From IMG/VR virus record IMGVR_UViG_2698536337_000010: a stretch of DNA of 7,739 nucleotides, one strand, 5' to 3'. This stretch comes from a virus (lineage: Duplodnaviria; Heunggongvirae; Uroviricota; Caudoviricetes). Positions 1 through 7,739 of this stretch are shown one piece after another (position 1 is the stretch's first letter; each line of letters starts with the position of its first letter). The notes under the pieces were generated by a model. It searched no databases. It saw only the letters and a list, made by a program, of their open reading frames with translations, and was not told the DNA's origin. The translations under genes and the position numbers were made by a program.

Positions 1-787
<787 letters not shown>

Positions 788-818
788 ATATATATGTATT
801 TTCTCTGTTAAGCGTGAG

Positions 819-871
819 CTACGTGAAAAATAATTTTTGGTGTGGGTATTAACTTTGCTTTATTCACGTAG
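819..871. repeat. Perfect 9-bp inverted repeat CTACGTGAA / TTCACGTAG with a 35-bp spacer, just 3' of the tape-measure stop codon
   Basis: Plus 819-827 CTACGTGAA and 863-871 TTCACGTAG are exact reverse complements. No U-tract follows on either strand, so not a canonical terminator. Confidence 0.5.
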
Positions 872-883
872 AACACCGTTAAA

Positions 884-3064
884 TCATTCTTCCTCTGGAT
901 AGCTTGAACTTAAGAGCATATCCTGCGTGAACTGGTCATTAGCTGATTGATTGAAAGTAAAGAAAGATGGTTCATCTGGTCGAACGACAACTTGACCACC
1001 AAGTGAAACTTTCACTGGCTCCTGAATACGCTTACTCAAAGCACTAATTTCATCCCTCAGACCCTGAATATCTGCACTCGTTAATGCTGAATCTTGCTTA
1101 ATGTTGTTTAACTCTGGATGATTGAATCTTGCAATATTCATTGTGGCATTGTTAAACAATTCACCCATTGAACTAAAAATTCTACTCCATCCTTCGTTAA
1201 TCATATTCGGTTTATTAGGGTCACCAGAATACACGGGATTAAAGTCACTACCCACACCTACCCCAGACGGATGCATATTAGCGTTTTTGACTACTTCCTG
1301 ATTCATAAAATCCAGTGCTTTCTTCAATGCATATAAACCAAGAGTGACGCCTCTGATTTGTGGAATCATTGAAGCTAATGCTAACGCTGTTTCATAACCG
1401 TCATCAGCATAACCAATTGCAAGAGCACTACCTACACCACCAGCTACACCTTTCAGTTTTCCACCACCTTTACCAGTAGCTACCTGACCAGCCACCTGAT
1501 TAGCTCTTGTACCTAACGTTGTGATTGCTCTTGTCAGGTTCATAACCCCTGTAGTAGCACTGAATAGCGTCTTTGCAGATAACGCTATAGCAAGACCTTT
1601 GACGAAGTTGATAAAACCATCACCGACTTCATCAAGTAGTTTTCGTTTAGTGTCATCAAGGCTGTAATAGAACTTCTTAGTCTGTAAAATCCAGCCTTCA
1701 ATGGTGTTATTGAATACGCGAATATCATCTACACCAGCTTTAAGCATGTCGATAAGTCCACCGATAGCATCACCAGCGATAGAAGAACTCATCCCCATTT
1801 CACTAAGCAGGTTACTCAGGCTGGATAAGAAGCCGTTTAGCTCATCCTGTGAACCTGAGAAGATTTTCACCATCGTATCATCCCAATTGTTTGCTAACTT
1901 ACCTAAAGCTGTCTGAGTGCTCTTAGTGACTTCAGCCCAGCCACCCGCTTTATCAATCATCAAGCCCATCTGTTTAGCGACTTTAGGGAGAGTATCAGCG
2001 GAAAGTACCTTCCCGTTTTTCATGGCTGCATCAAGCTCTGTAGCAGTCATACCCAATGCTTCAGCGAATAGCTTAAATGCACCAGCCATACGGTCACCTA
2101 ACTGCCCACGTAATTCCTCAGCCTGAATCTTGCCCTTGCTCGCCATCTGCTCAAATGCTCTCAAAATGCCGTTTAGCTCATCGTTAGAAAGCCCCATTAA
2201 GCGACTCATAGCCGTTGCATTACCAAATAGCTCCTGTGTCTGTTCCTGTGACATAGAACCCTGAGCACCTGCTGCAAACTTAGCGTAGCTTGATAGCCCT
2301 TCAGAGATATTAAGACCTGTCTTGTCTGCTAAATTTCGAATAAATACCTCAGCTTCAGATGCTTTATCACCAAGTACAAACTTAGCGGCTCTCTGTGCGG
2401 AATCTCGTTTAAGACCTGCATTCATAATGGCCTTGTAAGCGTTAAGAGCACCCATCACAGAGTAAAATGCACCAGATAATTTAATCGCATTGCTTGCAAG
2501 ATTATTAAATGCGTCGCTTGTATTGTTAATGCTGGCGGTCTTTGTCTGTGACCTGAGTTTATTCAACGTTTCACGAAGAGATTGATTTAATTTTGCAAGT
2601 TCAGCGTTAAACTTTTCACTTCCAATATTACCAGCCTTACCGCTTAAGCTGTAATACTGTGCTTTAAACATTTTAGCCATCAGCGGATTAATATCACCAA
2701 GCTTAGACATATTCACGCTATGCGCTGCTGTGATTGCTCTGTTTCCGCTAATTCGTGGTTGCCTTGATTGTTTTGGAGGATTAACAGTGTCATTAAATCT
2801 GGTGGCAAACTGAAATGCTTTTGTGCTTCTTGCTCTCTGCTCAATCTTGTCAAAGGTCTTATTAAACTTCCTTTCAAGCTGCCCTAAAGAACTTGTCAGA
2901 TTGCTGTCAAGTTGCTTGGTATCGACCTTAAACGCTCTATTCAAATTGCGTTCAATTCTTTGTGCTGACTGCAAAGCTGCCTTTTCAACTCTTTGCAAGC
3001 CCTTAATAACGTTTTCACTGAAACTAAGTTCAACGATAAAACTATCAACTGTGAATTTGCTCAT
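884..3064 (-). CDS. Phage tail tape-measure protein (726 aa)
   Basis: ATG at 3064 with SD AGAGGTGA 7 nt upstream. Coiled-coil-like N-terminal third; central segment GKIQAEELRGQLGDRMAGAFKLFAEALGMTATELDAAMKNGKVLSADTLPKVAKQMG matches the conserved tape-measure domain as I recall it; Gly-rich hydrophobic segment GKGGGKLKGVAGGVGSALAIGYADDGYETALALASMIP is typical of TMPs. No Walker motifs. Confidence 0.8.
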   Translation of the reverse strand: MSKFTVDSFIVELSFSENVIKGLQRVEKAALQSAQRIERNLNRAFKVDTKQLDSNLTSSLGQLERKFNKTFDKIEQRARSTKAFQFATRFNDTVNPPKQSRQPRISGNRAITAAHSVNMSKLGDINPLMAKMFKAQYYSLSGKAGNIGSEKFNAELAKLNQSLRETLNKLRSQTKTASINNTSDAFNNLASNAIKLSGAFYSVMGALNAYKAIMNAGLKRDSAQRAAKFVLGDKASEAEVFIRNLADKTGLNISEGLSSYAKFAAGAQGSMSQEQTQELFGNATAMSRLMGLSNDELNGILRAFEQMASKGKIQAEELRGQLGDRMAGAFKLFAEALGMTATELDAAMKNGKVLSADTLPKVAKQMGLMIDKAGGWAEVTKSTQTALGKLANNWDDTMVKIFSGSQDELNGFLSSLSNLLSEMGMSSSIAGDAIGGLIDMLKAGVDDIRVFNNTIEGWILQTKKFYYSLDDTKRKLLDEVGDGFINFVKGLAIALSAKTLFSATTGVMNLTRAITTLGTRANQVAGQVATGKGGGKLKGVAGGVGSALAIGYADDGYETALALASMIPQIRGVTLGLYALKKALDFMNQEVVKNANMHPSGVGVGSDFNPVYSGDPNKPNMINEGWSRIFSSMGELFNNATMNIARFNHPELNNIKQDSALTSADIQGLRDEISALSKRIQEPVKVSLGGQVVVRPDEPSFFTFNQSANDQFTQDMLLSSSYPEEE

Positions 3065-3095
3065 TCATGTTTCACCTCTTTAAGTGTTCATATAC

Positions 3096-3137
3096 GAAAA
3101 AGGGAAAGACTACCGATATCACTCGATAATCTCTCCC
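3096..3137 (-). terminator. Candidate intrinsic terminator or attenuator between the 68-aa ORF and the tape-measure gene
   Basis: Minus RNA: GGGAGAGA-u-UAUCG-agugauau-CGGUA-g-UCUUUCCC followed by UUUUUCG. Outer 8-bp stem (one G-U) plus inner 5-bp stem, then a U5 tract, ending about 30 nt before the TMP SD. Confidence 0.4.
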
Positions 3138-3162
3138 GTAGATTTTCACCCAACCAATCTTG

Positions 3163-3369
3163 TTACCTAACCAGATAATAATTACCATCTTCACCAACAA
3201 TCTGACAATCACTTGGTAATTTATCAAGACACCACTTAGCTATTTTCCTGATTCTATTCTTTTGCTTAGAGGAGGTGAATGATTTGATTCGTTTTGGTTT
3301 GTTGGGTTGTTCTTTCAATCGTTCACTAATTGCTTTAATAAGCTCATAGCGTTCTGTTAAATCAATCAT
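3163..3369 (-). CDS. Hypothetical small basic protein (68 aa)
   Basis: ATG at 3369 with SD AAGGTGGTGGTG directly upstream. Lys/Arg-rich middle (KPKRIKSFTSSKQKNRIRKIAKW). No recognisable family. Confidence 0.6.
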   Translation of the reverse strand: MIDLTERYELIKAISERLKEQPNKPKRIKSFTSSKQKNRIRKIAKWCLDKLPSDCQIVGEDGNYYLVR

Positions 3370-3393
3370 TCACCACCACCTTTTAATTATTAA

Positions 3394-4104
3394 TTAAATA
3401 GCCTTTGCATATTTGCTAGAAATCTTCGTAAGCTGCTCAATATCAGCCTGCATAGCAATCTTCTTAGCATCTTCATATTCTTTCACAAGCTCTTTCATAG
3501 CCTGAAGCTCTCTTGAGAGATACAACTTAACATTATCAAGTTGCTTGTTACGTGATGCCAAGATGTTCTGTCTAGCAATTTCAGCGAGTTCTTCATCGCT
3601 CTTATTAGTCATGTAAATAAACTGACCAGCACCTCTTGATGCCTTAACCATCTTCACAATTCGATGTCCAGCAGGAAGACTACTAATCACGGCTGCGACG
3701 TTTTCTTGAAAAGTACCAAAACCATCATTATCTTCGTATTGGTAATAGACAAATGGTTTCTGTGACAATTCATCCTGAATCTCAAATTCTGACGGCTCAA
3801 TAGCTGATTGCATCAAGGTAACTTTGCTGTAAGCGTCATCTAATCTAAGGCGCTGTTCTTTCAGCAGTTGGTAATATTTCTTTTCAAGCTCAAGTAATGC
3901 TTCACTCTTGCAAATATCAGGCATCTCTTGAGGCTCAGGAGACACAAAGATGGTTGTTTTTGGTGACATCTTTAGCGATTGCTCAAGCTCAATACGCTTG
4001 TCATGCTCTTTACGCTGAATAGTGATAGCTGGATGTTCAGTCTGTGGCGACCAGTCACTGAAGCTATCAATCACTTTGCCATTAATGTAAATATCATTTG
4101 TCAT
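3394..4104 (-). CDS. Hypothetical protein (236 aa) with a charged, helical or coiled-coil-like C-terminal third
   Basis: ORF track gives 3394..4152, but 4152 is a GTG. The in-frame ATG at 4104 is preceded by GAGGAA at a good distance, so 4104 is preferred. Same strand as the TMP gene; two stops separate it from the 68-aa ORF. Confidence 0.65.
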   Translation of the reverse strand: MTNDIYINGKVIDSFSDWSPQTEHPAITIQRKEHDKRIELEQSLKMSPKTTIFVSPEPQEMPDICKSEALLELEKKYYQLLKEQRLRLDDAYSKVTLMQSAIEPSEFEIQDELSQKPFVYYQYEDNDGFGTFQENVAAVISSLPAGHRIVKMVKASRGAGQFIYMTNKSDEELAEIARQNILASRNKQLDNVKLYLSRELQAMKELVKEYEDAKKIAMQADIEQLTKISSKYAKAI

Positions 4105-4279
4105 TGCTTTTCCTCTTCTAAGCGGAAGTGTTTCAGTTTTTAAAAAGCACACCTGACAGCCTATCTAAACTTAGAAGAGACTTAAAAGGCGGTTTGCCAA
4201 GTATGCTTTTTAAAAGCTGAATAGCCCTAGATAATTTCTTATAAAGGGCCATTCATAAGGTGAAGAAATTAAAACATCT

Positions 4280-4301
4280 AAAGGATTCAAAAAGGATTCA
4301 A
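4280..4301. repeat. Tandem direct repeat 2 x 11 bp (AAAGGATTCAA AAAGGATTCAA) in a 350-bp non-coding region
   Basis: Exact duplication read directly from the sequence. Nearby inverted repeats ATGACCT/AGGTCAT (4328-4334 / 4351-4357) and ATCATT/AATGAT (4391-4396 / 4404-4409). Confidence 0.6.
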
Positions 4302-4424
4302 ACGAATGAACAAGAGTACTTTTCGAGATGACCTCTCAGACTAACCTGAAAGGTCATGTAGCGAAAAGCATTGCACCTTTCAGAATAACTATCATTGATG
4401 TAGAATGATTAATAGTTTAATTCA

Positions 4425-4441
4425 GGAAGAGTTGCTCTTCC
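4425..4441 (-). terminator. Weak candidate hairpin downstream of the 25-aa ORF (GGAAGAG-ttg-CTCTTCC)
   Basis: Perfect 7-bp inverted repeat with a 3-nt loop, followed on the minus strand by the A/U-rich stretch UGAAUUAAACUAUUA. The short loop and interrupted U-tract make this weak. Confidence 0.2.
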
Positions 4442-4502
4442 CTATTACCATCATCTCATGCTTAAGGTTATTTGTCAACAGCTTTTTAACAGATTGGTAA
4501 CA

Positions 4503-4580
4503 TCAATTCTTATTTACCGTATTACCTACCCAGCAACCAACAAATAACCCTAAAGTCATCCAGAGAATAACGAGTGTCAT
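4503..4580 (-). CDS. Possible 25-aa hydrophobic micro-peptide (MTLVILWMTLGLFVGCWVGNTVNKN), translationally coupled to the upstream 101-aa ORF
   Basis: Not in the ORF track (too short). ATG at 4580 overlaps the TAA of the 101-aa ORF (TAATG). SD GAGGTG lies 5 nt upstream inside the upstream gene. About 18 contiguous hydrophobic residues, enough for one transmembrane helix. Confidence 0.35.
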   Translation of the reverse strand: MTLVILWMTLGLFVGCWVGNTVNKN

Positions 4581-4885
4581 TACATCACCTCGCTGTAAGG
4601 GTTTAATTCATTCTGATAGGTCAAGAATACATTCAGCTTCAATAATTGCTCAGGGCTTAAATCAAGTCGATTGCACTCTTCAATGATAAAGCGCTTATTG
4701 TATGGGTCTGTTACTTCCAGCTTGTGAACATAGTCACCAAGTTTAATTTCGTTGATTATATGCTTGTCAATATACGTTGACGCTTCAAAACAATGCATGA
4801 AATAGATATTAAAGCCCGACCTGTTCAGGTCAATCAACCAATTCATGGTTTCTTGGTCAACCATAATTTGCATTGGGTAATTCAT
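4580..4885 (-). CDS. Hypothetical protein (101 aa)
   Basis: ATG at 4885 with SD AAGGA 8 nt upstream. No recognisable motif. Confidence 0.6.
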   Translation of the reverse strand: MNYPMQIMVDQETMNWLIDLNRSGFNIYFMHCFEASTYIDKHIINEIKLGDYVHKLEVTDPYNKRFIIEECNRLDLSPEQLLKLNVFLTYQNELNPYSEVM

Positions 4886-5031
4886 TTTTAAAATCCTTCC
4901 TGTATCGCATTCTAAGACGTTTTAACCCCTTTTTTAGACCACTTAAGGCGATTCCCTAAGTTACCCTGATTAGGGGCTTAAAAACGTTTCTGGTGCGTCT
5001 GGTAAAGCCTGAGAGATATGTTTTGCTGTTT

Positions 5032-5247
5032 TTAGCTCAAGTCTGAGACTAATAGCCCCATCTGGTGACCGTAGTCTTTTAACCAGCTTTGCTTAACCGG
5101 AGTCTTCAGAGAATAGTTAGGGGCTGACAAGTGAAGATAGATATCATCTTTGCCGTGGATACTTCCCCATCCTTCGTATAACTCAAGCAAGTTTTCAAAA
5201 TAACGAAATGCTTTATTAGTCTGAAGTTGTACTGTGATAGTTTTCAT
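5032..5247 (-). CDS. Hypothetical protein (71 aa from the ATG at 5247; 75 aa if the ATG at 5259 is used)
   Basis: ATG at 5247 overlaps the TGA of the upstream ORF (TGATG). GGGGTG SD-like sequence upstream. Confidence 0.5.
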   Translation of the reverse strand: MKTITVQLQTNKAFRYFENLLELYEGWGSIHGKDDIYLHLSAPNYSLKTPVKQSWLKDYGHQMGLLVSDLS

Positions 5248-5468
5248 CAAGCACCCCATTCAGAAATAAGCTTAATTCCCTGCTCAAGCTGTTCAGGGTC
5301 GTTATAGTCGAGTATTACCAGTGGCTTTAATTCGTGTTTAAGCTGGTGGATTTGAGAGGGTTTTAATCGTTTGTTTGCTTTGAGGGTCACATCTTCAAAT
5401 TCAGCATCTGCTAAATTCTGTCTGATTAGGTGGCGGCCAAGTGTGGAATATTGGAACCTATAACACAT
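5247..5468 (-). CDS. Hypothetical protein (73 aa)
   Basis: ATG at 5468 overlaps the TAA of the upstream ORF (TAATG). SD GGAGG 4 nt upstream. Confidence 0.5.
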   Translation of the reverse strand: MCYRFQYSTLGRHLIRQNLADAEFEDVTLKANKRLKPSQIHQLKHELKPLVILDYNDPEQLEQGIKLISEWGA

Positions 5469-5758
5469 TAAACCTCCAATCTATCCGCCAGTTGATGGAC
5501 CTTAGCGCTTAACACCTGAATCATTGAGCAACCTGCTACTGCGGACTGTGCTTTGAGTAGTTCCAGTTGGCCCGTTGTGATTCTGATGGCCTTAGAACCC
5601 TCTGCGACGCCCTTAACGTTATCGAAAGGGCTAAGGTTTACCGACTCTTTTAAAATCTCCCCAACAAGCGCTGTGTGCTTCATATCGGGATATTTGGCTT
5701 TGATTGCTGCCAGTCGTTCAAATGCCTCTGGCAAAAGGCGCGTAACTGTGTGAGTCAT
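5468..5758 (-). CDS. Putative DNA-binding protein with two tandem ribbon-helix-helix-like motifs (96 aa)
   Basis: ATG at 5758 with SD AAGGAG 9 nt upstream (the track's 5788 ATG has no SD). Residues VTRLLPEAFERLAAIKAKYPDMKHTALVGEIL and AIRITTGQLELLKAQSAVAGCSMIQVLSAKV each follow the RHH pattern (beta-strand, helix A, turn, helix B with a Ser/Thr N-cap). Judged by eye against Arc/CopG/ParD/TraY-type sequences. Confidence 0.55.
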   Translation of the reverse strand: MTHTVTRLLPEAFERLAAIKAKYPDMKHTALVGEILKESVNLSPFDNVKGVAEGSKAIRITTGQLELLKAQSAVAGCSMIQVLSAKVHQLADRLEV

Positions 5759-5816
5759 TGTAAAAATCTCCTTAAATCTCTTACTCATACTACAATCTTA
5801 ACATCTATTTAACATA

Positions 5817-5845
5817 TTGTCAGTACCTCATTTACATGATACTAT
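5817..5845 (+). promoter_or_regulatory. Sigma-70-type promoter for the plus-strand small-membrane-protein gene
   Basis: -35 TTGTCA (5817-5822), 17-bp spacer, extended -10 TGaTACTAT (TG 5837-5838, hexamer 5840-5845). Predicted start about 5852, followed by SD AAGGA (5885-5889) and ATG 5896. Confidence 0.5.
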
Positions 5846-5895
5846 GGTTGTAGGGGCTGATACAGGTGCTGTTTCCTTTCACAAAAGGAAAATTA

Positions 5896-6072
5896 ATGCA
5901 TGATTTTTTCACAGCAATTATTGAATCTCATCGTTTTAGCTCGTTGGGCTTTGCGGTATTTATTGTGCTATTGGTGTTTTGCGTTATGAATCGAGTCATT
6001 ACAAAAAAGACAAAGCTTACAATTCGACTTAAACTTCTTCGTGTTGAGATAGAGATTTCAGTAAATAAATAG
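5896..6072 (+). CDS. Small single-pass membrane protein (58 aa), the only plus-strand gene in the window
   Basis: Track ORF 5866..6072 starts at a GTG too close to the predicted transcript start; ATG 5896 has a proper SD. Sequence MHDFFTAIIESHRFSSLGFAVFIVLLVFCVMNRVITKKTKLTIRLKLLRVEIEISVNK has one roughly 18-residue hydrophobic helix followed by a basic tail. Its 3' end overlaps the convergent minus-strand gene by 15 bp. Confidence 0.5.
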   Translation: MHDFFTAIIESHRFSSLGFAVFIVLLVFCVMNRVITKKTKLTIRLKLLRVEIEISVNK

Positions 6073-6456
6073 CTGGTGGACTGAATCCCATAAATCGTAA
6101 TGATACAGCACCGCAAACTTCAAAGCGTCAATCTTTAAATCTGTCACATCATCGACGAAATAATAATCCCTCCCTTCTTTCTTCGGTCGAATCCGNNNNN
6201 NNNNNNNNNNNNNNNNNNNNNNNNNNNNNNNNNNNNNNNNNNNNNNNNNNNNNNNNNNNNNNNNNNNNNNNNNNNNNNNNNNNNNNNNNNNNNNNNNNNN
6301 NNNNNNNNNNNNNNNNNNNNNNNNNNNNNNNNNNNNNNNNNNNNNNNNNNNNNNNNNNNNNNNNNNNNNNNNNNTCATCAAGTAACCTTCACGAGAAATG
6401 CTGTAACGTCTGAGTAAATAGTCACGGTATTTTCTCTCGCCATTATAAGTTTTCAT
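6058..6456 (-). CDS. Hypothetical protein interrupted by an assembly gap, in the position a lambda P-like partner gene would occupy
   Basis: ATG at 6456 overlaps the TAA of the replication gene (TAATG), using the GGAGGA inside the upstream gene's last codons as SD. Only 27 N-terminal and 45 C-terminal residues are real sequence. Frame continuity across the N run is not evidence the two pieces are one gene. Confidence 0.35.
   Translation of the reverse strand: MKTYNGERKYRDYLLRRYSISREGYLMXXXXXXXXXXXXXXXXXXXXXXXXXXXXXXXXXXXXXXXXXXXXXXXXXXXXXXXXXXXXRIRPKKEGRDYYFVDDVTDLKIDALKFAVLYHYDLWDSVHQLFIY
6196..6374. other. Assembly or scaffold gap (179 N)
   Basis: Uninterrupted run of n characters. Confidence 0.99.
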
Positions 6457-7409
6457 TAAAACATTCCTCCACCATAAACACGTCTGACTTTAACTTTTTC
6501 TTTCTTTGGCTCGGTGTGAGTTTTCTTTTTTGGTGTAAAAGTAAAATCATCGTCACTATCATCAAAGTCATCGAGGTCACTAACCTTGTTCTTTAGCTTC
6601 GCATTTCTGAATCTTTCTTTAATTTCTGCTTTACGCTGTTCACGTTTCAATTCCTTTTCAGGGTCTTCTTCATCATCAAGGTCAACATCCGGTAATTCAT
6701 CATCAGTGGCGGGGCACTGTGTGTTTTTATGGTCACTACTAGCAATCACATCAGAGATTTTATCTTCCTTTTTAACGACCTCTTTAGCAGCTTCACTATC
6801 AAGGTCATCTAAGTCAGATGTTTTAACAGTCTCTTTAATAGCCTCTTCAATACCAAGAGAATCACATTCATGTGAATCACAGAGCGAAGCTCCCTTCTTA
6901 AAATATTCTTCTTCAAAGTCATCTTCTTTATTGTTATTAATAAGTTCTTTCTTGTTATTACTGTTATTATACGTGTCAAAGATTTTGACTGACTGAGTAA
7001 AAAATTTTGACTCAGTGGGTAAAGAATTTTGACTCAGTGGGTCATCTTTCTTGACTGACTGAGTAACTTTAGACTCCAGCTTTGCCTTTCTGGCTTCCTT
7101 AGCTGTAAGCTCTGTTAAAACCTCCGGTACTTCATCAAGTGAATAAACTTTAATAACACACTGATTGCTTGCAACGTTAGTTTTCTTGATTAAACCATGT
7201 GCCTCAAGTTGTTTCATACATGCAATCACGGATGTTCTTGTGATTCCAGCATACTGACCAAGATGAGCATATGAAGGGGTATAATATTGCCCCTTATCGT
7301 GATAAAACTTTTGTTCATTCAACATGACAGTGTAAATAATACGGTCGGCAGCTTTAACGCCATTAGTCATCTGATAAATACGGTCATCAAACATGTGGAA
7401 TTTTTCCAT
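6456..7409 (-). CDS. Replication initiator (lambda O / replisome-organiser-like, 317 aa): N-terminal helix-turn-helix domain plus a long acidic low-complexity C-terminal region
   Basis: ATG at 7409 with SD AAAGGAAAA (the track's 7466 start is a TTG lying inside a terminator hairpin). N-terminal about 100 aa contain an HTH-like segment (YAHLGQYAGITRTSVIACMKQLEAHGLIKK). The gene contains an iteron array and AT-rich tract. C-terminal about 200 aa are D/E/K-rich with repeated SDLDD-like motifs. Confidence 0.75.
   Translation of the reverse strand: MEKFHMFDDRIYQMTNGVKAADRIIYTVMLNEQKFYHDKGQYYTPSYAHLGQYAGITRTSVIACMKQLEAHGLIKKTNVASNQCVIKVYSLDEVPEVLTELTAKEARKAKLESKVTQSVKKDDPLSQNSLPTESKFFTQSVKIFDTYNNSNNKKELINNNKEDDFEEEYFKKGASLCDSHECDSLGIEEAIKETVKTSDLDDLDSEAAKEVVKKEDKISDVIASSDHKNTQCPATDDELPDVDLDDEEDPEKELKREQRKAEIKERFRNAKLKNKVSDLDDFDDSDDDFTFTPKKKTHTEPKKEKVKVRRVYGGGMF
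6983..7070. repeat. Four 22-bp phased iterons (origin-like) inside the replication initiator gene, flanked by an AT-rich tract (about 6900-6982)
   Basis: TTGACT cores at 6985, 7007, 7029 and 7051, exactly 22 bp apart. Units are TTTTGACTGACTGAGTAAAAAA / TTTTGACTCAGTGGGTAAAGAA / TTTTGACTCAGTGGGTCATCTT / TCTTGACTGACTGAGTAACTTT, an A-B-B-A arrangement in which A and B contain mutually inverted ACTGAGT / ACTCAGT cores. Confidence 0.7.
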
Positions 7410-7423
7410 TATATTTTCCTTTT

Positions 7424-7470
7424 TAAAAATAAAACAAAGAAAGGGCTGACCACGTATAGTGACCAACCCC
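7424..7470 (-). terminator. Intrinsic-terminator-like hairpin plus U-tract immediately upstream of the replication gene (tR1-like position)
   Basis: Minus RNA: GGGUUGGUCAC-uauac-GUGGUCAGCCC (11 bp including 3 G-U pairs) followed by UUUCUUUGUUUUAUUUUU, ending about 15 nt before the SD of the replication gene. The G-U pairs become C-A mismatches on the plus strand, so the element is minus-strand specific. Confidence 0.5.
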
Positions 7471-7479
7471 AGAGGGAGT

Positions 7480-7739
7480 GAATTAATTAGAAGATGGACT
7501 GATAAAGGAACTCAGAAGCCTGAGCGATTACGCGAGTATTAACAGCAAAAGGAAAAGCCTTGATTGAATAAGAGGCCGTGAAAATCTGTCAATACCCTGA
7601 CGCCTCCCAACGTTGTAACCTCTTAATGTTCTGAGTTCTTTTATCACCCCATATAAAAACTATAACAGATGTGATTATAAATTGCAACAATTATTTCACA
7701 GAATAATTACTGATTGGTCATTTATTGTTCACAGGGATA
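7480..7739. promoter_or_regulatory. Non-coding AT-rich region at the right edge with candidate promoter hexamers and direct repeats (early regulatory region, truncated by the window)
   Basis: No ORF of plausible size on either strand. Minus strand has a perfect TATAAT (plus 7674-7679) with a poor -35, and a perfect TTGACA (plus 7587-7592) with a poor -10 (TATTCA). Direct repeats TTATTTCACAG / TTATTGTTCACAG lie 33 bp apart (TTCACAG at 7695-7701 and 7728-7734). Confidence 0.3.

Follow-up and report, generated by a model that had tools for sequence, protein, structure and literature searches.

Satellites that carry tail genes are known from Vibrio cholerae, where the PLEs, elements resembling phage-inducible chromosomal islands and equipped with a large serine recombinase and a replicon of their own, are parasites of the virulent myovirus ICP1 (PMC12987554). 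PLEs encode a tape-measure protein (TMP), a tail assembly chaperone and a baseplate hub, and form chimeric tails with ICP1 parts; PLE11 also blocks the helper TMP by means of Rta, a protein of 80 aa, and predicted tmp genes have been noted in other putative satellites (PMC12987554). In Escherichia coli, Barth et al. (PMC10055350) described putative satellites of Stephanstirmvirinae phages (Inny, Muut, Mt1B1_P17) that carry a TMP and a baseplate gene, major capsid and decoration proteins and a RepA_N initiator, and that mostly have a tyrosine integrase beside tRNA genes, with a serine recombinase in a subset (PMC10055350). Here we describe a 7,739-nt scaffold from IMG/VR (record IMGVR_UViG_2698536337_000010), the whole of which is referred to below as the window. 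It covers the greater part of one Shigella sonnei copy, now partly decayed, of an integrative island some 11 kb in length, in which a lambda O-like replication gene stands near a TMP gene and a gene for a Dit-like tail protein; its 236-aa protein is 100% identical to an S. sonnei protein.

We lean, with modest confidence, towards reading the island as a satellite of virulent Felix O1-like phages (Felixounavirus) that would use its own TMP and Dit-like protein to build chimeric tails. We are evenly divided on the claim that these islands represent an unrecognised family of Felix O1-like phage satellites without head genes, which would replace only the two innermost tail proteins, the TMP and the Dit-like ring, for chimeric tails. 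The island family is apparently undescribed so far. A search of open-access literature retrieved no paper linking satellites with Felix O1 or Ounavirinae, and six island accessions do not occur in the supplementary text of PMC10055350, a text that perhaps does not extend to Table S6.

Arrangement, distribution and excision of the island

A sequence-only reading of the window had remarked that a replication gene and a TMP gene lie only about 3.4 kb apart on the same strand, and the distance from the stop of the replication gene (rep) to the start of the TMP gene is indeed 3,392 bp. Every credible gene in the list of open reading frames (ORFs) of the window is on the minus strand. As that reading had also held, the interval contains only short unrecognisable ORFs, of 98 (N-interrupted), 96, 73, 71, 101, 236 and 68 aa, together with one 68-aa ORF on the plus strand. 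The window ORFs were run against the profile libraries Pfam, PHROGs, NCBIfam and PADLOC, and no ORF of the interval matched a head, packaging or tail family in any of the four; neither profile nor structure searches identified the small ORFs as diverged morphogenesis proteins. Of the explanations put forward at that stage, a reduced satellite-like or defective element is the one that we favour: the locus belongs to a conserved, mobile and probably self-replicating island family without head and packaging genes, and the present copy is damaged as well.

An assembly mis-join had been offered too, and this part did not survive comparison with other assemblies. A chimera in which a replication half and a tape-measure half were wrongly joined, possibly at the N gap, would suit a scaffold with a run of 179 N (6196-6374) and, right beside that gap, a 78-bp difference from another assembly. 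However, phage homology breaks at about position 3085, away from the gap, and an ungapped 14.1-kb contig of S. sonnei (L125, from GCA_026143145.1) matches the window over 35-6082 at 99.95% and over 6375-7739 at 100%. Both flanks of the N run are collinear with this contig, which has 23 bp where the window has 179 N, and so the gap hides only those 23 bp. A third S. sonnei assembly (L126) agrees over window positions 4-4486. Hundreds of finished E. coli chromosomes, like the three S. sonnei assemblies, repeat this gene order with identical junctions; the arrangement is therefore genuine and no assembly artefact, and we give the chimera practically no credence. The 78 bp that the window lacks at 6082/6083 are bounded in L125 by a 13-bp direct repeat; the difference is either a local assembly problem (repeat collapse) or a small real in-frame deletion downstream of rep, and it leaves the architecture unaffected.

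A survey took in 5,426 complete E. coli genomes. The part of the window at 3086-7739 has matches in 499 of them, on the chromosome only, and the TMP/Dit half in 570; the core formed by the 68-aa and 236-aa genes was found in 402, with at most three copies per genome and none on plasmids. Roughly 7-10% of complete E. coli genomes thus carry the island, which occurs in Shigella and Salmonella too. Among GTDB species representatives, only two loci were found, in Escherichia sp. and E. albertii.

Complete relatives measure about 11.3 kb. One end carries a large serine recombinase of 506-507 aa with Resolvase, Recombinase and Zn_ribbon_recom domains; then follow, convergent to the recombinase gene, the Dit-like gene, the TMP gene, a gene for 68-70 aa, a gene for 235-240 aa and several small ORFs. 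The replication module varies: islands L002 and L003 have an O-like Rep, and island L004 has other genes, HNH and HNH-AP2 genes among them. In the latter, these HNH and HNH-AP2 genes of homing-endonuclease type (L004 16233-16520 and 19175-19699) replace the O-like replicon beside a near-identical TMP/Dit module, and they recall the endonuclease-derived domains of the PLE-ICP1 conflict. Insertion sites were located inside yecE (L003 and L004), between tonB and yciI (L002 and L135) and beside rutG-ymdF (S. sonnei), and chromosomal genes directly flank the complete copies.

Profile searches of the window and of the complete island L135 detected neither capsid, portal or terminase genes nor genes for sheath, tube or lysis, and both thus lack the genes for autonomous virion production, as a satellite does. 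None of these genes occurs in any complete copy examined, and TMP and Dit are the only morphogenesis genes that were recognised. The same four libraries returned no chaperone or defence match for the window or the complete island. The sequence-only reading had named terminase, portal and capsid genes elsewhere, with this block simply displaced, as a finding that would speak against it; both flanks of the complete relatives consist of chromosomal genes instead. A complete or defective lambdoid, P2-like or Mu-like prophage was also considered and was rejected, as terminase, portal, capsid and major tail genes are absent from the window and from all complete copies examined.

A search for an integrase and attachment (att) sites outside the window, which the sequence-only reading had proposed, was productive: complete relatives have the serine recombinase at the island end, and the att core was recovered for islands of the tonB type. 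A contig from Logan run SRR22802630 (L137) is 11,280 bp long and circularly permuted, with a terminal overlap of 27 bp; it joins the recombinase end to the opposite island end (the junction of the recombinase gene and a 221-aa gene) and corresponds to positions 4432-15697 of L135, yielding an 11,253-bp circle. The attL, attR and attP sites share a 13-bp core, CAATGACCCTTGA (L135 4432-4444 and 15685-15697; L137 3743-3755), and the reconstructed attB overlaps the tonB start codon. Since the core CAATGACCCTTGA overlaps the start of tonB, integration keeps the tonB reading frame and swaps the upstream region for island sequence. The same attP junction was found in a second run (ERR11042405, L146). 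The island is therefore shown to be mobile, with an excised circle in two sequencing runs. Two further metagenome contigs of about 11 kb, L139 and L144, were examined as possible circles and rejected; they lack a terminal overlap and represent integrated copies whose contigs break off at the island borders, with about 40 bp of chromosomal flank at each end of L144.

Tail genes, their spacer and the replicon

Beyond what the sequence-only reading had covered are the source of the TMP gene in a virulent Felix O1-like phage, the second (Dit-like) tail gene and the insertion sequence (IS) at the window start. The TMP gene (884-3064, minus strand) is intact and encodes 726 aa. Its product matches Pfam TMP_3 (E=2e-21, 77 bits for a cut-off of 41), TIGR02675 (E=1.7e-15, 57 bits for a cut-off of 21.35) and phrog_4036 (E=4e-93), so that it is recognised as a tape-measure protein by profiles above curated cut-offs, and a Dit-like gene follows it. 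This Dit-like tail or baseplate gene (35-748, minus strand) is here a pseudogene, with a frameshift and truncation by the IS. Its first 57 aa match phrog_3721 (E=6.6e-26), and intact relatives match Pfam Dit_like (E=2.5e-20).

Matches of the window to phage genomes are confined to positions 268-3085 and are essentially only to Felix O1-like (Felixounavirus) genomes, with homology stopping 21 nt upstream of the TMP start, at about 3085. Searches of positions 3000-7739 against 50,697 phage records with megablast and blastn gave nothing past the first 86 bases. The window TMP has 34% identity overall to the TMP of phage garuso, with 78% over residues 1-40, 72-75% over a core at residues 290-349 and an identical C-terminal LLSSSYPEEE; island TMPs are 679-726 aa long, versus 735 aa in garuso. 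The window TMP gene has about 94% DNA identity to the E. coli island copies. The TMP core of the window is closer to the phage than to island L003, which points to repeated exchange with phages. In the Dit-like gene, positions 268-703 have 92-93% DNA identity to many Felixounavirus genomes, and the island Dit proteins are near-identical to the garuso protein over residues 1-185, which contain the Dit_like domain, and diverged over the last 75 residues. Judged from these alignments, both tail genes are mosaic versions of their Felixounavirus counterparts, and the phage-like stretches may be the regions that would contact phage parts.

The two genes are homologous to garuso_118/119 of the Felixounavirus tail module, in part near-identically, and stand in the same order. 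In the phage, unlike in the islands, the pair is part of a complete operon of tail and head genes in which the TMP gene is directly adjoined by chaperone genes, and most of the island TMP as well as the Dit C-terminus has diverged from the phage versions. TMP and Dit genes also abut each other in the phage, whereas the islands have an island-specific spacer of 135-157 bp between them.

In the window this spacer is 135 bp long (749-883, minus strand), as delimited in a three-island alignment. It holds a conserved element of about 75 nt (about 803-875) with the inverted repeat CTACGTGAA...TTCACGTAG, the extended arms of which are about 20 nt long with a gap of about 35 nt between them, and also a hairpin with a 9-bp stem before the Dit ribosome-binding site. 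When folded as RNA, the spacer element has a predicted energy of -25.8 kcal/mol (z = -3.1). In 13 loci the CTACGTGAA/TTCACGTAG element precedes TMP and/or Dit, with a copy before the TMP gene as well as the Dit gene in many islands, and the phage locus L001 does not have it; further copies occur at L003 11155-11207 and at L139 6672-6724 and 8932-8984. A 14-mer scan of IMG/VR for the element retrieved mostly chance matches, and the loci with two matches were island copies in predicted prophage regions. The element could be a promoter/operator or an RNA structure. At the other end of the TMP gene, a strong intrinsic terminator (3102-3137, minus strand), with a stem of 15 pairs and a T run, lies between the 68-aa gene and the TMP ribosome-binding site and is conserved in L002, L003 and L004.

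The replication initiator (Rep; 6456-7409, minus strand) is a predicted lambda O-like winged-helix protein of 317 aa, or 336 aa from an upstream TTG. It matches the replication initiator families phrog_8102 and phrog_428 (best E values 1.6e-10 and 2.2e-10) and also PHROGs of O-like replication initiation proteins, the matches ranging in E from 1e-10 to 1e-6 overall; Pfam adds weak winged-helix (helix-turn-helix, HTH) and DnaD_N matches. No RepA_N match was found for Rep in Pfam or PHROGs. The putative origin (6924-7062, minus strand) lies inside rep. Four iterons of 22 bp stand there in tandem (6975-7062), with an AT-rich stretch after them (about 6924-6974), and the same iteron array is present in the rep gene of L003. 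The locus thus has what would be expected of a lambda O-type replicon, namely an initiator with a predicted DNA-binding domain and, inside its gene, iterons and an AT-rich region. By tblastn, neither Rep nor the 236-aa protein has a homologue in the 50,697 phage records, and Rep has none in 72,556 plasmid records.

In lambda, the origin is located within the O gene and is formed by four tandem iterons and then an AT-rich region. The island initiator resembles lambda O in its N-terminal winged-helix domain and in this placement of a four-iteron, AT-rich origin in its own gene. It differs in that the similarity is at profile level only, the island iterons are 22 bp long, the C-terminal half of Rep is highly acidic and of low complexity, and no P-like helicase loader is recognisable in the island.

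Remaining genes, intergenic elements and damage in the S. sonnei copy

Directly upstream of the TMP gene and always paired with the 236-aa gene is a gene for a basic orphan protein of 68 aa (3163-3369, minus strand). It has 59 homologous clusters, of which the named ones are from E. coli and E. albertii and none has an assigned function, and it matched no family in Pfam, PHROGs, NCBIfam or PADLOC. Its AlphaFold2 model is of low confidence (predicted template modelling score, pTM, 0.29).

The 236-aa protein (3394-4104, minus strand) is the conserved core protein of the island. Its AlphaFold2 model consists of a long coiled-coil hairpin and a small alpha/beta domain, and the fold matches generic coiled-coil proteins. 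The family is narrow, with 23 representatives at 50% identity, and its source names are E. coli, S. sonnei, Salmonella enterica, E. albertii and E. marmotae. Distant versions (42% identity) were found in the same gene context, which makes its link to TMP, Dit and recombinase an old and conserved one. In NCBI records the protein is widely labelled as a transposase, and we find no support for this annotation in Pfam, NCBIfam, PHROGs or the predicted structure. A role as tail assembly chaperone likewise gained no support: a BLASTP comparison with the Felix chaperone was negative and only generic coiled-coil folds matched.

Upstream of the 236-aa gene is a long untranslated region of 427 bp. By consensus matching, positions 4132-4478 of it (minus strand) contain a sigma-70-like promoter at 4478-4450, the best such match of the window, and an inverted repeat at 4132-4158/4195-4221 with 27-nt arms that are 85% complementary; a function of this promoter and inverted repeat is predicted from the sequence, and positions 4186-4290 are not conserved between islands. 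Further along are four orphan ORFs of 101, 71, 73 and 96 aa (4580-4885, 5032-5247, 5247-5468 and 5468-5758, all on the minus strand), taken from the ORF list and the gene calls of L125. None of the four matched a family in the same profile libraries, and the part from 4580 to 5758 differs between islands. The ORF list also contains a divergent 68-aa ORF with a hydrophobic segment (5866-6072, plus strand); L003 has a plus-strand coding sequence for a 61-aa 'hypothetical protein' at about the corresponding place, a match by position, not alignment. The gene downstream of rep (6058-6456, minus strand), which encodes 98 aa in L125, is broken in the window by the gap at 6196-6374 and the 78-bp difference at 6082/6083.

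The region upstream of rep (7442-7739, minus strand) contains, again by consensus matching, a sigma-70-like promoter (7687-7659), an inverted repeat with 38-nt arms (7494-7531/7615-7652) and a terminator-like hairpin (7470-7442). Rfam returned nothing above threshold in the window. In several island copies there is a small DNA invertase, a Dam-type methylase that ends in an HTH at its C-terminus, or both. In L125, past the right end of the window, these are a 189-aa Hin-type invertase (4638-5207) and a Dam-family methylase fused to a resolvase-type HTH (5729-6391); invertases of 189-200 aa stand beside a long non-coding stretch in several other islands.

The S. sonnei copy is damaged at its Dit end. 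Positions 1-41 are the end of an IS21-family element, ISSso4, with island sequence from about 34/35. They are a 95% match to a multi-copy sequence on S. sonnei and E. coli plasmids, and in pSS_046 this sequence lies about 200 bp outside istA of ISSso4; the E. coli islands align from window position 34 only, and L125 ends exactly at position 35. Independent short-read contigs break exactly at the ISSso4 junction. ISSso4 is inserted about 21 nt before the Dit stop, and the recombinase gene expected beyond Dit is consequently not linked in the window. In addition, the Dit gene has a 74-bp deletion at 579/580 with no flanking repeat, and each of the three S. sonnei assemblies has it. Phage garuso, L003 and L004 retain these 74 bp, the loss of which shifts the Dit frame here after codon 57. 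The TMP gene, the core genes and the replicon of the window copy are intact. This copy can probably do no more than replicate and express its TMP, without finishing the cycle. Genomes of S. sonnei are rich in IS and have undergone general IS-driven decay, and the window is best seen as a partly disabled family member that fits this pattern.

Proposed satellite cycle, rival explanations and described satellites

If the island is a satellite, then by analogy with the PLEs infection by a Felix O1-like phage would trigger its excision and O-type replication and would switch on TMP and Dit, which are placed behind the strong terminator and the island-specific palindromic element. Because of that terminator before the TMP ribosome-binding site and that palindromic element, we infer that the tail genes are silent until an infection-dependent signal. 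Island concatemers would then be packaged into helper capsids, and these capsids would be joined to chimeric tails in which helper sheath, tube and baseplate surround the island TMP and Dit. The helper yield would suffer, and the bacterial population would probably be protected.

Several points weigh against this account. The phage-dependent induction, packaging and transduction of the island are steps that we infer, and the excision seen in the two runs that contain circles could be spontaneous. No pac or cos mimic, small terminase or capsid-size factor was recognised in the island, nor was a tail assembly chaperone, the 236-aa protein being no more than a generic coiled coil. The island turned up in no virome-derived contig, and the IMG/VR matches to the 236-aa protein are all prophage-type predictions from isolate genomes. 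Finally, in the window copy itself the Dit gene is broken and the end is taken up by an IS.

Some of these points would suit an island that integrates, excises and replicates yet serves defence only. Its phage-derived TMP and Dit, possibly aided by the two orphan proteins of 68 and 236 aa, would poison or act as decoys in Felix O1-like tail assembly and in this way shield the population, while the island itself would not be packaged and would spread by other means. Phage-like docking regions next to a divergent TMP middle and Dit C-terminus are what one would expect of a dominant-negative subunit; interference with tail assembly is documented as defence, in Rta of PLE11 and in Tai systems (PMC11364771), and the failure to find a packaging signal, a capsid-remodelling gene or virome contigs is in keeping with this explanation. 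On the other hand, PADLOC gave no match, an excising and probably self-replicating 11-kb circle with its own putative origin is in line with multiplication during infection for the sake of packaging, and in the sole system studied the satellite TMPs enter satellite virions. We therefore regard a purely defensive island as unlikely, although satellite and defence roles are not mutually exclusive. We consider it very unlikely indeed that the island is the decaying remnant of a temperate prophage, in which the short spacing would result from deletion of the head genes and most tail genes. The S. sonnei copy has decayed, through the 74-bp Dit deletion and the ISSso4 insertion, in a species known to be rich in IS; nevertheless, the same compact gene set in the same order is found in hundreds of genomes with intact TMP, Dit and terminal recombinase, and random decay would not stop repeatedly at the same 11 kb. 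The element also still excises precisely, its non-tail part has no detectable relative in the phage records searched, and its tail genes are from a strictly virulent phage group without an integrated form.

Were the satellite reading correct, it would matter beyond this island. Felix O1-like phages are classic Salmonella typing phages and are common in cocktails for biocontrol or therapy of E. coli, Salmonella and Shigella, and if a widespread island parasitised or blocked them, it would help in practice to determine which bacteria are susceptible to phage and would be a model for natural resistance to therapeutic and typing phages of the Felix O1 type. Satellite-encoded TMPs and chimeric tails have been shown only recently and for one Vibrio system, and an independent enterobacterial family with the same logic would make rewiring of the tail core a general satellite strategy.

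Among the satellites of Enterobacteria, the phage-inducible chromosomal islands that form capsids (cfPICIs) are similar to the present island in that some members are reported to have a TMP gene. They are, however, defined by their own capsid, protease, head-tail adaptor, terminase, alpA and Pri-Rep genes, none of which is in the island. More broadly, neither the window nor the complete island gave a match to the PICI set (tyrosine integrase, AlpA, Pri-Rep) or to P4-like genes (Psu, Sid, Delta, alpha primase). The satellites of Barth et al. are closer in kind: they too are E. coli chromosomal elements predicted to parasitise virulent myoviruses, with a TMP and a baseplate component in the absence of the remaining tail genes, and with modular replication. 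In contrast, the present island has no match to their major capsid protein, decoration protein (Dec) or RepA_N, and its tail genes are from Felixounavirus (Ounavirinae) rather than from phages of the Justusliebigvirus type (Muut being a Justusliebigvirus).

The PLEs offer the closest parallel. Like them, the island is a small chromosomal element with a large serine recombinase and its own initiator and origin, and without capsid, portal and terminase genes; the recombinase is found in the complete relatives and is not inside the window, which ends in an IS. PLEs are tied to a virulent myovirus, as the present island is predicted to be, and both have their own TMP and an adjacent baseplate-proximal tail protein, which in PLE take the place of the corresponding helper proteins in the chimeric tails, the satellite TMP being somewhat shorter than that of the helper (here 679-726 versus 735 aa). 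PLEs are larger than the island, which is about 11 kb long. The two have no sequence relationship beyond belonging to one general class of recombinase; the island initiator is lambda O-like with the origin in its gene, as opposed to the RepA_N initiator of PLE, and no tail assembly chaperone, TcaP, NixI, CapR or LidI is recognisable in the island. The hosts also differ, being Escherichia, Shigella and Salmonella for the island, as does the helper, predicted here to be a Felixounavirus instead of ICP1. The island family thus shares the logic of the PLEs and not their parts, since its backbone is unrelated, its replicon is of the O type and capsid genes are lacking, and, if the satellite reading is true, it would be an enterobacterial counterpart of PLE-ICP1 and a genetically tractable model for the manipulation of tails by satellites.

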